From Pseudomonadota bacterium (lineage in GTDB: Bacteria; Myxococcota; JACRCW01; JAFGSX01): DNA of 64,000 nucleotides. Position 1 is the stretch's first letter; each line of letters opens with the position of its first letter. The stretch is from NCBI GenBank assembly GCA_043821645.1, contig JBDRCO010000101.1, positions 32,001 through 96,000 on the forward strand. Direction: 5' to 3'. A model generated the notes under the pieces. The model was not told the origin of the DNA, did not search any database, and saw only the letters and a list, made by a program, of their open reading frames with translations. This document shows, piece by piece, positions 17,045 through 19,856 of the stretch. Both the position numbers and the translations under genes were made by a program.

Positions 17045-18484
17045 ATGAACACCGACGCACCGACCCTGACCGGCAAGAGCCGGCCCGTGGTTTTGCCACG
17101 GCTGCCTGTCCAGGACGCCCAAGCTGGAGCCGTGCCTGGTGGCTTGCGCATCGAACGCGCGGGGCACGCGCCCGTCGACATGGTACTGGATCCCGAACAG
17201 CGCTACCTGCTGGGACGCCATGACGCGGCGGACATCGGCTTTGCCGCGGCCGAGGTATCCAGGCTGCACGGCGTGCTGCGCGTGGTCGACGGCGTCTGGC
17301 ACTACGAGGACATGGGCAGCCACAATGGCAGCGTGCTCCGTCGCGCGGGGCATGCAAGCCAGGTCGCGCTGCAGGCCCGCGAGGCAATGGCTGTGGGTGT
17401 GGGTGACACCGTTGCCCTTGGCTGCGACGAGGCGCGGCTGCTGTTCGTGGAACGACCGCCACTGCCAGGTGTCCGGCACGACGCCACCGCCCGCTCTGAG
17501 ATCGCCCGGCTGTTCGAGAACAACCTGCAGGTGGCCGCGCGCACCCGGGTCCCAGTGTTCCTGCTCGGTCCGTCCGGCTGTGGCAAGACGAGGGCGGCCA
17601 GGCGCATCCACGATCTCGGCAGGTCCAGCGGGTCGTTTGTGCCGGTCAACTGCGCGCGCTTGCCCGCGGACCCCTCGGCCTTGCACAGCGAGCTGCTGGG
17701 GCACGTCAAGGGCGCCTACACCGGAGCCGAGGCCGATCGGACTGGCAGGTTGGTGCACGCCGACGGTGGGACCCTGTTTCTCGACGAGGTCGAGAGTCTC
17801 TCTCCGCTGGCCCAGGGCTTCTTGCTCGACGTGCTCGAGGGCAGCGGTGACCTGGCGCCCCTGGGCAGCCGGCGGCCCTTGCAGCAGGCTCCCATCTTCC
17901 GACTCCTCTCCGCGTCCAAGCGACCTCTGGGGGAGAGCACGCTGCGCGACGACCTGTGTGAGCGCCTGGCCGAGGGACATTTGTGGCGCGTACCGACGCT
18001 GGATCAGCGGCGCGAGGACATCCCGGGCTTGATCCGGGCCTTTGCCCGCGAGCAGAGCACCTTGCTGGGCGTCGAGGTGGAACTCGCCGAGGACACGGTC
18101 ACGCTGGCTGTCGGGGCGGACTGGCCCGGCCAGATCCGGCAGCTGCGGGCAGCCATCTACGTGCTGGCACAGTGGCTGGTGGCCCGTACCATGGTCGATC
18201 ACGCACCACCACGGCGGGTGCGCATCGAGCGCGTGCACCTGGTGCAACACCTGCGCGAGCGCGACGAGGCCTTTGGTCTGCGTCGAGACATCACATCCGA
18301 TTCCGCGGCGGACTCGCGCGAGCAGGCTCCAGCCCAGAAAGCAGACGCCCGCCGCCTCAGTGCCGCTCAACTTCGCGCCATCTTGCAGGAGTGTGCAGGC
18401 AACCGCAGCGAGGCAGCTCGCCGCCTCGGCATCGCGCGCAATACCCTGGCACGCAAGATTCGCGAGTTCGGGCTGGAGCCTTGA
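17045..18484 (+). CDS. FHA-domain sigma-54 enhancer-binding protein (FHA-AAA+-Fis HTH)
   Basis: FHA motifs LGR, VSRLHG and DMGSHNG. Walker A GPSGCGKT, GAYTGA loop, Walker B LFLDEV, WPGQIRQL, and HTH GNRSEAARRLGIARNTL. Confidence 0.92.
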   Translation: MNTDAPTLTGKSRPVVLPRLPVQDAQAGAVPGGLRIERAGHAPVDMVLDPEQRYLLGRHDAADIGFAAAEVSRLHGVLRVVDGVWHYEDMGSHNGSVLRRAGHASQVALQAREAMAVGVGDTVALGCDEARLLFVERPPLPGVRHDATARSEIARLFENNLQVAARTRVPVFLLGPSGCGKTRAARRIHDLGRSSGSFVPVNCARLPADPSALHSELLGHVKGAYTGAEADRTGRLVHADGGTLFLDEVESLSPLAQGFLLDVLEGSGDLAPLGSRRPLQQAPIFRLLSASKRPLGESTLRDDLCERLAEGHLWRVPTLDQRREDIPGLIRAFAREQSTLLGVEVELAEDTVTLAVGADWPGQIRQLRAAIYVLAQWLVARTMVDHAPPRRVRIERVHLVQHLRERDEAFGLRRDITSDSAADSREQAPAQKADARRLSAAQLRAILQECAGNRSEAARRLGIARNTLARKIREFGLEP

Positions 18485-18521
18485 GCTCTCCCGCGGCGGG
18501 CCGACCGTCCCCATGCTTCCG

Positions 18522-18578
18522 AGGGGTGAAGGCGTCGGGACCTGCGCCCGCCGCAGAGGGGACGAGCCGACCGTCCCC
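18522..18578. repeat. Copy A of a 57-bp double-hairpin intergenic repeat
   Basis: 48/57 identical (hand alignment) to 42013-42069. Hairpins CTGCG/CGCAG and GGGGACG/CGTCCCC. Confidence 0.75.
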
Positions 18579-18650
18579 GAAAGAAAACGAAAACCCCGGA
18601 AGCCCTGGCCGCTGACGCGGGCGACTGGCGAGGTCGCGGACTTCCGGGGT
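18579..18650 (-). terminator. Intrinsic terminator-like structure
   Basis: 10-bp inverted repeat ACCCCGGAAG (18593-18602) / CTTCCGGGGT (18641-18650) enclosing an inner hairpin, followed on the minus strand by TTTCGTTTTCTTTC. Confidence 0.7.
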
Positions 18651-18755
18651 CGGTGATGCGCGCCCGTCCCGACCGCGGGACGTGATCGCGACGCGCAGGG
18701 TGACCAGTGCGCCGGGCCGTCGACGTGGCCGTGGCCACGCCGCCGCCGGGAGGCG

Positions 18756-18797
18756 CTAGGGCGCCATCACCTCACGTGCCTGTTGAACTGCGAACAC
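18756..18797 (-). CDS. 13-aa small ORF MFAVQQAREVMAP
   Basis: GTG start 7 nt after the GGAGG of a maximal Shine-Dalgarno. TAG stop at 18758-18756. Confidence 0.45.
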   Translation of the reverse strand: MFAVQQAREVMAP

Positions 18798-18995
18798 TGG
18801 ATCACCTCCTTTCCGGCGAGTGGCGCTGGGCGCCCGCCTCGTGGTCCGCACCCGAAGGTCGCCGCCGTCGCAACGCCCGGGTGTGCGCCGAAACCATCTT
18901 CGACTCGGGGCCGTGTCACCCCTGCCAACCAATGTACCCGTCGTCGGGCGGGCCTGCCATGTAGGTGTATCTTTTTTTGCCTGACAAGCACGCAG

Positions 18996-19856
18996 TCAGG
19001 TGCCTCGGCTGACCCTGGAAATGATCAGGCGCTTGACCGAGTCGCGCACGCGACCTGTCTTGGCCAGCTTGCGCAATTCGGTCTCGGGCAGCCGGCCCAG
19101 GAGCTTCTCCACCAGGTCCATGGGGACCTTTGGGTTGCAGATCAGATTGCGGACCACGCTGCTGTGGCGCAACCACTCGGTCCGGCTGCCGATGCGCTTG
19201 AGCAGCTCGGGCTCGAGGGTCGTCATCGCGGCCATGGCGGCCACCTCGTCGGAGGTGAGGCCGGGGTTGGCCAGAACGTACTGCTGTAGGTTGCGGTCTT
19301 GCAGCTTGAGCACGTGGCGCCGCGCAGCCAGCTGTCCGCGCTTGGCCACCATGATGCGGTCAGACACCGATAGACCGGGCCATTCGATCAGCAGTTTCTC
19401 GATGGGCCAGCCTGCCGGGCCCACCACCCCTGCCGGGCTGGGGTCTCGGTTGCTCGAGTCTGCCTGTGCCGGGTCGGTGCCGCTCCCATTGGCTGGCGAT
19501 GCCGCAGGTGGCTCCTCGCCCGACTCCGACTCCGGGTCCGGGAACTGCTGTGCCTCCATCCACGCGAGCACCGGTTCGAGGCCCCCGGTCCCGGGCTCGA
19601 CACCCTCTAGCAGCTCATCCACCAGGGCGGGTTCCAGCAAGCGAACCACCAGACCGCCGTCGGGCATGAGCTGCAGGACCTCGACCGCGAGCGCGCCAGT
19701 CGCATCGGGCAAGGTCACCTGGAGTTCCAGGCGTTCGAACTGCTTGACCTCGGGCGGGCCCTCGGCGGCTGGCAACAGCCACACCCCGCCCTGGCCCCGG
19801 CTGTCGACGAAGCGGCGCAGGTCCTCGAGGCTGTCACAGCGAAGCTGCAAGATCAT
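18996..19856 (-). CDS. Hypothetical protein: degenerate PilZ-like N-domain plus C-terminal helical-repeat (NPKxP) domain
   Basis: C-terminus VLANPGLTSDEV...EWLRHSSVVRNLICNPKVP...ELRKLAK. Acidic/Pro linker. Confidence 0.75.
   Translation of the reverse strand: MILQLRCDSLEDLRRFVDSRGQGGVWLLPAAEGPPEVKQFERLELQVTLPDATGALAVEVLQLMPDGGLVVRLLEPALVDELLEGVEPGTGGLEPVLAWMEAQQFPDPESESGEEPPAASPANGSGTDPAQADSSNRDPSPAGVVGPAGWPIEKLLIEWPGLSVSDRIMVAKRGQLAARRHVLKLQDRNLQQYVLANPGLTSDEVAAMAAMTTLEPELLKRIGSRTEWLRHSSVVRNLICNPKVPMDLVEKLLGRLPETELRKLAKTGRVRDSVKRLIISRVSRGT

Follow-up and report, generated by a model that had tools for sequence, protein, structure and literature searches.

We analysed a 64,000-nucleotide (nt) stretch of a Myxococcota genome (GenBank assembly GCA_043821645.1, contig JBDRCO010000101.1, positions 32,001 to 96,000 of the forward strand; hereafter the window, with its 7.07-Mb assembly designated G000) and describe an intergenic element on the minus strand of this window. 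The element is probably a small mRNA with its own transcription and extensive structure, about 340 nt long, running from approximately 18923 to approximately 18585 and belonging to the rre ('ribosome-regulated expression'; PMC5711450) type. The kind as such is already published, in the form of the rre small mRNAs of Alphaproteobacteria. New are the phylum, the larger structured RNA around the reading frame, a family of at least 97 members with covarying long-range contacts, a conserved promoter element, the equation of rre with the Rfam family CC2171, and a neighbourhood that includes purU. An earlier note on this DNA had implied that the RNA was novel in kind, which did not survive the comparison, since rre RNAs are in print and CC2171 carries the same 20-mer.

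At the core of the element lies an extended Shine-Dalgarno (SD) sequence, the last G of which also opens the GTG start codon of a short open reading frame (sORF). The earlier note had described a GTG 7 nt past GGAGG, an open reading frame (ORF) of 13 amino acids (aa), an internal GAGGTG and two look-alike hairpins, all of which were found in the sequence as follows.

18813-18797, minus strand: extended SD sequence GAAAGGAGGTGATCCAG, 17 nt, exact complement of the 3' end of the genome's own 16S rRNA
18809-18805, minus strand: GGAGG, followed after 7 nt by the GTG at 18797-18795
18797-18756, minus strand: sORF, GTG plus 12 sense codons plus TAG (18758-18756), product MFAVQQAREVMAP
18773-18768, minus strand: internal SD-like GAGGTG within the sORF
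18773-18766, minus strand: internal SD-like GAGGUGAU, the GGUGAU of which (18771-18766) is the 5' strand of the predicted long-range helix H7
18834-18822, minus strand: pre-SD hairpin H3, GGCGC-CCA-GCGCC, aligning with the homologous hairpin of the family
18765-18752, minus strand: stop hairpin GGCGC-CCUA-GCGCC, with the TAG in its loop, a look-alike of the pre-SD hairpin

That the 17-mer is the complement of the 16S 3' end was confirmed against the genome's own 16S gene, found on another contig (L001): the match is exact, with 16 of the 17 nt inside the Rfam small subunit (SSU) rRNA model and the 17th one base beyond the end of that model. The 14-mer core, AAAGGAGGTGATCC, occurs once in the window versus 0.01 expected. 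Genome-wide it occurs twice, in the 16S gene and in this element. Contiguous complementarity to the 16S tail of the window's genome extends over 17 nt in the window itself, 18 nt in G003, 14 nt in both G142 and G150, and 13 nt in G034. The likeness of a neighbouring CGCAG-TTC to a strand of helix 45, also raised earlier, is read as chance, the sequence differing in the four relatives.

The family to which the element belongs was assembled from genomes of the host's phylum and from metagenomes. A DNA search of 40 relatives identified homologous elements in G003 and G034, and a search with GGAGGTGATCCARTG across a comparison set of 401 Myxococcota genomes produced matches in ten genomes, five of which hold the element (G000, G003, G034, G142 and G150). 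The sORF products of these five are MFAVQQAREVMAP, MSNPMASEVAAS, MSGSNPMACEVVAS, MSGSKPTAREVVAS and MSGSNPTACEVAAS. They are 12, 13 or 14 aa long, their differences are in frame, and their stops are TAG in three cases and TGA in two. Metagenome contigs were then searched with the block that follows the SD, GTGAGGTGRYGGCGYCCTRRCGCC, a pattern which fixed 21 positions, left out the SD and start codon, allowed TGG at the stop site and left the 3' helix partners free. This yielded 92 loci (L146-L237), giving 97 family members together with the five genomes. Applied to the 401 phylum genomes, the metagenome pattern recovered the same five genomes plus one chance-like match of 22 nt; G313 was excluded as a member, its match being limited to the 22-nt block and having TGG in it. 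Because the pattern finds only five genomes in the phylum, most metagenome members would come from lineages not placed taxonomically.

The remaining matches to GGAGGTGATCCARTG were rejected. Those in contig C81 of G000, in G001 and in G118 lie within mutually similar long open frames and were read as coding; here the 15-mer GGAGGTGATCCAGTG sits within a long open frame that is alike in the three genomes and encodes ...EEVIQW... (G000:C81:44743-44757, G001:C337:2606-2620 and G118:C336:424-438; L136, L144 and L143), which we read as a coding-sequence coincidence. A second match in G001 is inside another open frame, and that in G204 looks like chance. The matches in G127 and G356 are not family members. 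In these two genomes, the same extended SD, 13 nt or longer and running into a GTG or ATG start (G127:C25:46608-46622, L139; G356:C21:19702-19716, L137), precedes an ordinary long gene, with ORFs of 501 and 350 aa, respectively, indicating that very long SDs in the phylum are not confined to tiny frames.

Conservation within the family centres on the reading frame. In 96 of the 97 members, an in-frame GTG or TTG came 6-9 nt after GGAGG (7 nt in 92), the sole exception being truncated by the end of its locus. Among these 96, the start codon was GTG in 59 and TTG in 37, with no ATG, and the sORF had 14 codons in 93. Over all 97 members, the stop was TGA in 62, TAG in 25 and TAA in 10, and never TGG despite the pattern permitting it. 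Mean entropy over codons 2-8 was 0.93, 0.43 and 0.78 at the first, second and third codon positions, and the third positions of paired codons were invariant. This pattern argues that it is the frame that is conserved and not the peptide, and the micropeptide function entertained in the earlier note fell away on the same grounds. A family model, R1 (SD, GTG or TTG, sORF ...EV.A., stop hairpin), detected a single copy in the window's genome at 57.8 bits (E 3e-12), a score that is partly owed to construction because the window sequence is in the seed alignment. Its features were checked separately, and the window displays the SD, a start in frame, a hairpin loop that contains the stop, and the H7 pairing to the strand ahead of the terminator. 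At E <= 0.1, R1 had no match in G001, which is of the same family and 82 % complete, nor in G002, which is 92 % complete.

Around this frame, the element is predicted to fold into a larger structure, for which the window holds these further parts.

18922-18901, minus strand: 5' hairpin GGGG-UGACACGG-CCCC, then GAGUCG, at or near the 5' end of the RNA
18900-18835, minus strand: structured GC-rich leader, variable in sequence among relatives, with predicted hairpins whose pairs are poorly supported (three sequences)
18709-18699, minus strand: candidate strand CACUGGUCACC opposing the ribosome-binding site (anti-RBS), complementary to GGUGAUCCAGUG
18657-18652, minus strand: AUCACC, 3' strand of H7, directly ahead of the terminator, pairing with GGUGAU in the sORF
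18649-18594, minus strand: composite terminator with an outer 9-bp stem, arms CCCCGGAAG (18649-18641) and CTTCCGGGG (18602-18594)
18637-18621 and 18620-18609, minus strand: two small hairpins inside the outer terminator stem
18593-18580, minus strand: U-tract UUUUCGUUUUCUUU, 3' of the terminator

A structural model derived by eye was tested on 36 diverse metagenome members, chosen from 62 sequences after removal of near-duplicates. In this set 91.9 % of cells were paired, versus 33-52 % when the partners were slid, and 47 cells were double-changed versus 19.3 +/- 3.3 in shuffles, with none of 500 shuffles as high. Pairing counts per helix, repeated on 58 sequences, gave a picture that agrees with this test. 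The homologue of H3 was paired in 322 of 348 cells across the family, 11 of them double-changed, and a stem closing the RBS region, formed by the pre-SD CGCCGAG and a downstream CUCGGYG, was 95-96 % paired. The spacer and start codon pair with a strand 3' of the stop hairpin in a variable stem that aligns poorly, is 58-66 % paired and contains many double changes. The stem of the stop hairpin is invariant, partly by construction as it was fixed in the search pattern. Two long-range contacts engage the frame itself. In the metagenome clade H7 joins the in-frame GGUGRCG to a CGYCACC immediately ahead of the terminator, is 96-97 % paired and contains 7-9 double changes from G-C to A-U, and across the five genomes it covaries as GGUGAU/AUCACC in the window, GGUGGC/GCCACC and GGUGGU/ACCACC; of an initial consensus fold of three sequences, the H7 pairs alone proved useful later. 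The other contact is a pseudoknot in which sORF codons 6-8 (CUACGGCG) pair with a hairpin loop internal to the terminator; it was paired in 463 of 464 cells and included three C-G to U-A exchanges. The terminator stem was 96-98 % paired in the family, with covariation.

It was also observed that the conserved loop of the family's 5' hairpin, CUCACUC, is the exact complement of GAGUGAG in sORF codons 9-11 (e.g. L149 and L157). If formed, this pairing would add a third long-range contact to those that engage the frame, with its sORF side fixed by the search pattern; in the window equivalent (18918-18911) about 4 bp are left (CACG with CGUG).

From its sequence, the element is predicted to be an independent transcription unit, bounded in the window by the following features.

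18936-18931, minus strand: TACATT, likely -10 hexamer (TANNNT), 8 nt ahead of the 5' hairpin
18959-18954, minus strand: TGGCAG, possible -35 hexamer, weak, 17 nt ahead of TACATT
17045-18484, plus strand: flanking gene for a sigma-54 activator with FHA, AAA+ and HTH_8 domains, converging on the element's side; the protein clusters nearest to this regulator are mostly from Myxococcota, a lead to the host's phylum
19892-18996, minus strand: flanking gene for a 298-aa protein without a Pfam match, upstream of the element on the same strand

Of 81 unique upstream regions in the family, 73 contained a recognizable 5' hairpin with loop YUCACUC followed by GAGUY, the other eight having visible hairpin variants outside the search expression. 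In all 73, a TANNNT stood 7-11 nt ahead of the hairpin stem, mostly after CCGA. The hairpin and GAGUCG motif were also present in G003, G034 and G142, where the region of the window's TACATT reads TAGAAT, TAGGCT and TATGAT, respectively. Of the promoter put forward in the earlier note, TACATT was thus upheld by its alignment with the family TANNNT, whereas both hexamers had been placed one base off and the -35 is not conserved, none having been seen in the relatives. A scan of 18300-19200 for consensus sigma-70-like promoters found no site. With TACATT 8 nt before the 5' hairpin, transcription is predicted to start near 18923, giving an RNA of about 340 nt, a length that fits the stretch covered by contigs from RNA libraries. 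Metatranscriptome contigs with 100 % identity covered 18627-18789 and 18776-18938 in one study and 18771-18915 in a second, and two further studies contained contigs with relatives of 90-95 % identity. No contig on 17800-18580 or 19007-19900 was found in the four RNA libraries, although contigs cannot show absence or level.

At its 3' end, the unit is closed by the terminator and U-tract, as previously proposed. The gene that comes next is convergent, and the element's own strand has none downstream. A simple terminator scan missed this terminator because its loop is long. The sole terminator-like match of that scan was a weak site on the plus strand (18952-18976; listed by the scan as 18952-18966), with a 6-bp stem and a T-run, which overlaps the proposed -35; about 0.7 such matches are expected there by chance. 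The three neighbouring genes of the window had no homologues within 1.5 kb of the element in G003, G034, G142 and G150. Neighbours are not conserved between genomes. Promoter, leader, extended SD, short ORF and terminator form a conserved unit, which is predicted to stand alone as the earlier note had envisaged.

The closest published counterparts are rreB and rreR. Hahn 2016 (RNA Biol, PMC5711450) describes rreB of Bradyrhizobium as a 165-nt mRNA with a 14-codon sORF and a 17-nt complement of the 16S 3' end that takes in the G of its GTG start. The RNA co-sediments with 30S subunits, is weakly translated owing to the long SD and GTG start, and is stabilized when the start codon is changed to a stop; its function is said to 'remain elusive', and over-expression in Bradyrhizobium gave no growth phenotype (PMC5711450). 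The range reported there covers four alphaproteobacterial orders, to which the supplements may add further taxa (PMC5711450). The window shares with rreB and rreR an anti-16S stretch of 16-17 nt, the last base of which is the G of the GTG start, a very short frame (14 or 18 codons in rreB/rreR, 13 in the window), a small stand-alone transcript with an intrinsic terminator (predicted from sequence in the window), an SD region predicted to be partly base-paired within the RNA, and a genomic context that is not conserved between clades. Of the traits of rre RNAs, it thereby has a 16S complement of at least 16 nt that ends on the initial base of its start codon, and a GTG opening a very short ORF. 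It differs in its host phylum, Myxococcota rather than Alphaproteobacteria, and in being about twice as long as rreB (approximately 340 versus 165 nt), with a 5' domain and a composite terminator. A literature search found no follow-up on the function or range of rre RNAs, and its matches to the sequence strings were primer and oligonucleotide tables only.

Scanning one genome per species for the 16-mer followed by GTGT identified at least 120 loci, and most of the 80 titled ones were alphaproteobacterial. Among the matches listed, 115 of 119 stop-reaching frames comprised an sORF of 10-32 codons, and 110 unique sORFs ended in TGA (42), TAG (37) or TAA (31). Nine of these loci were scanned with CC2171 (RF01867; gathering cut-off 75 bits). 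Scores were 120 bits for Caulobacter, 97 for Methylobacterium and 91 for Brevundimonas, 52 for an rreB-type locus beside a tRNA, 39 for a Planctomycete and 28-36 for three Gemmatimonadales. As rre-type loci score on this model, rre and CC2171 are the same RNA class (L080, L049, L068 and L095), a link to CC2171 or Rfam that goes unmentioned in Hahn 2016 (PMC5711450). The model consensus begins with the same 20-mer as the window element, GAAAGGAGGUGAUCCAGUGU. Expression of CC2171 has been confirmed by Northern blot in Methylorubrum, where it is treated as a small RNA (sRNA) of unknown role and regulating condition (bioRxiv 10.1101/2022.01.24.477521). The Gemmatimonadales metagenome-assembled genomes (MAGs; L019, L032 and L109) and a Planctomycetaceae MAG (L028) carry the 16-mer followed by short frames at 28-39 bits versus CC2171, the Gemmatimonadales frames having 14 codons that read MSxDxxKARIAxSx. 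The rre design may therefore occur in more phyla than reported.

No Rfam family covers the metagenome-clade RNA. Weak full-length matches to Ms_IGR-5 (RF02471; cut-off 45 bits), described as an actinobacterial sRNA expressed in Streptomyces (PMC8079986, PMC8780764), were obtained for four of 13 sources (three of ten metagenome loci and the G034 copy, L004) at 23-27 bits, below the cut-off. The order of parts is the same, comprising GGAGGUG, GUGAGGUGG, a CACC strand and the terminator, and by our reading of the consensus Ms_IGR-5 in the family frame ends ...EVAAR-stop, compared with ...EVAAS-stop in the family. The window had no match to Ms_IGR-5 at E up to 10. We take the resemblance, seen in these sequences, as a lead.

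The neighbourhood of the metagenome members repeatedly contains purU. Motif counts were made over the loci without de-duplication, and nine fragments were scanned with NCBIfam models, all nine matching PurU at E 1e-8 to 4e-23. Among 75 metagenome loci that extend 200 nt or more upstream, 42 had the PurU N-terminus in divergent position on the opposite strand; among 62 that extend 200 nt or more downstream, it followed the terminator on the same strand in 17. Where both flanks were available, purU was on either side in 40 of 57 (e.g. L154:667-924 and L163:538-855). None of the five Myxococcota copies had purU near the element, and a true purU was found only in G003 of the five genomes, on another contig. 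The role of the RNA in the window's organism would accordingly be independent of purU. A literature search found no purU-linked sORF RNA.

Other explanations of the element were weighed against the interpretation as an rre-type small mRNA. A decayed rrn fragment or a chance match, which the identity of the 17-mer to the 16S-end complement could suggest, can be set aside as refuted and practically without probability. A search of 18300-19200 at E up to 10 returned no match to SSU rRNA, and the flanks do not align with 16S or internal transcribed spacer sequence, a possibility raised in the earlier note; the identity ends after 17 nt, other genomes conserve the unit along with its frame and structure, and the 14-mer is expected 0.01 times per window. 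We consider it highly improbable that the element acts in cis on a neighbour, whether as a 3' untranslated region or terminator region of the 298-aa gene (19892-18996) or as a leader-peptide attenuator. It does lie on the same strand as that upstream gene, beginning about 60 nt past its stop, a contig from the RNA libraries reaches as far as 18938 and so passes the proposed -10 on its upstream side, and purU stands 3' of the terminator on the same strand in the 17 of 62 metagenome loci. Yet in the window the next gene is convergent and the strand of the element has none downstream, homologues of the 298-aa gene and of the other two neighbours are absent beside the element in G003, G034, G142 and G150, and the family retains its own -10 element. 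The likeness to attenuators consists of a short frame pairing with a downstream terminator domain and, in part of the family, of purU downstream; unlike them, the window has no regulated downstream gene and no run of regulatory codons, and purU is divergent rather than downstream in 42 of 75 metagenome loci.

The remaining alternatives concern the frame. That the 13-aa product is itself functional, with the long SD merely tuning its synthesis, is distinctly unlikely, although the frame is conserved, the C-terminal part in the metagenome clade reads ...TTASEV(A/V/T)AS, and RreB and RreR are regarded as conserved small proteins within their clades by Hahn 2016 (PMC5711450). Conservation of the C-terminal codons was imposed by the search pattern, and these codons are also part of RNA helices; the N-terminal codons, which the pattern left free, are as variable at first as at third positions, and MFAVQQAREVMAP of the window has only EV.A in common with the family consensus; moreover, synthetic RreB and RreR are reported as unstructured and their over-production as without phenotype (PMC5711450). 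A purely non-coding structured sRNA, in which the SD-like stretches pair with internal anti-SD-like strands (AUCACC and CACUGGUCACC) and an incidental sORF meets no ribosomes, is unlikely too. It would account for the constraint of pairing on the sORF nucleotides, where H7 and the pseudoknot are supported and third positions invariant, and for the perfect 11-nt internal complement of its own SD in G003, and it would be in keeping with the handling of CC2171 and Ms_IGR-5 as sRNAs by Rfam and in what two transcriptome papers say of them. It sits poorly with a start that, in 96 of 97 members, stays at its distance from GGAGG and in frame with the stop, with three stops that interchange at one site where TGG was allowed but never occurs, with in-frame length changes among the five genomes, and with the reported weak translation and 30S binding of rreB (PMC5711450).

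Several results also weigh against the interpretation we favour. The window copy is the most divergent member of the family, and its pseudoknot match comprises only 3-5 bp, with the loop of the first inner terminator hairpin. Its anti-RBS duplex (-22.9 kcal/mol by RNAduplex) was equalled or bettered by 62 of 300 shuffles and is not significant, whereas the duplex was stronger in the relatives, at 3 of 300 shuffles for G003 and 4 of 300 for G034. The fold of the whole window RNA, with a minimum free energy of -177.5 kcal/mol and z = -1.35, is unremarkable and uninformative at this G+C content. As contiguous complementarity to the 16S tail of the window's genome amounts to only 6-12 nt in the 74 unique SD regions from metagenomes, the maximal SD is a trait of a sub-clade and not of the family. 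Judged on these comparisons, what characterizes the family is the combination of a strong SD and a weak start, and the full-tail complement is a specialization of the Myxococcota sub-clade that has arisen either in parallel with that of alphaproteobacterial rre RNAs or by common descent. Contigs in RNA libraries demonstrate presence only, not strand, ends or level, and DNA can occur there; one of them reaches 18938, some 15 nt upstream of the predicted start. Homology to rre RNAs was not found beyond the SD, R1 giving at most 22 bits, in an SD-driven alignment, on 100 of the at least 120 16-mer loci. In the Rfam comparison, which the earlier note had suggested, no family reached its cut-off for the window, the best being CC2171 with 20.5 bits (E 0.05; E 0.09 for the whole genome), far below 75, in a match that rests on the SD and terminator; the G034 copy scored 25.3 bits. 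Finally, the lack of a growth phenotype on rreB over-expression reported by Hahn 2016 (PMC5711450) makes simple ribosome trapping an unlikely purpose.

As an rre-type small mRNA, the element would work through its RBS, which could pair with the entire single-stranded 16S 3' tail over 17 bp ending in the G of the weak GUG. From this full-tail pairing and weak start, very tight docking of the 30S subunit and poor translation would be expected. The 13-codon frame would serve as a ribosome track rather than for its peptide, and its second half (GAGGUGAU and neighbouring bases) would pair with the 3' domain beside the terminator. A bound or translating ribosome would then have to refold the RNA, and this refolding may change the stability of the RNA or the action of the 3' domain. 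By analogy with rreB, we infer 30S binding, weak translation and start-dependent turnover, with ribosome occupancy as the signal that the RNA may read; the holding or sensing of 30S subunits suggested in the earlier note likewise remains an argument by analogy.

A broader reading, which we offer tentatively and regard as doubtful, would unite the window RNA, the 92 metagenome RNAs, rre/CC2171 and Ms_IGR-5 in one ancient, multi-phylum class of ribosome-anchoring small mRNAs. Its members would have in common an SD that is strong or maximal, a weak start codon other than AUG, a short frame with a second, SD-like GAGGU a few codons ahead of the stop, and an anti-SD-like CACC strand beside the terminator. 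If this were true, such RNAs would report free 30S subunits, or initiation capacity, by a switch of fold upon ribosome docking or translation. In the largest clade, a wiring to purU, which encodes 10-formyl-tetrahydrofolate deformylase, would tie formyl-group supply for initiator tRNA to the capacity for initiation, and where purU lies downstream, control would be by read-through of the terminator.

In sum, the same design, in which a weak start and a tiny frame go with an anti-16S SD of full length, is now seen in another phylum, and RNAs of the rre type prove to have been filed separately in Rfam as 'Caulobacter sRNA'. The family provides a comparative set with covarying helices, a promoter element and sub-clades that range from 6 to 18 nt in their complementarity to 16S rRNA. 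The adjacency of purU is a first genomic lead to physiology, by which the role of a ribosome-anchoring mRNA becomes more testable.

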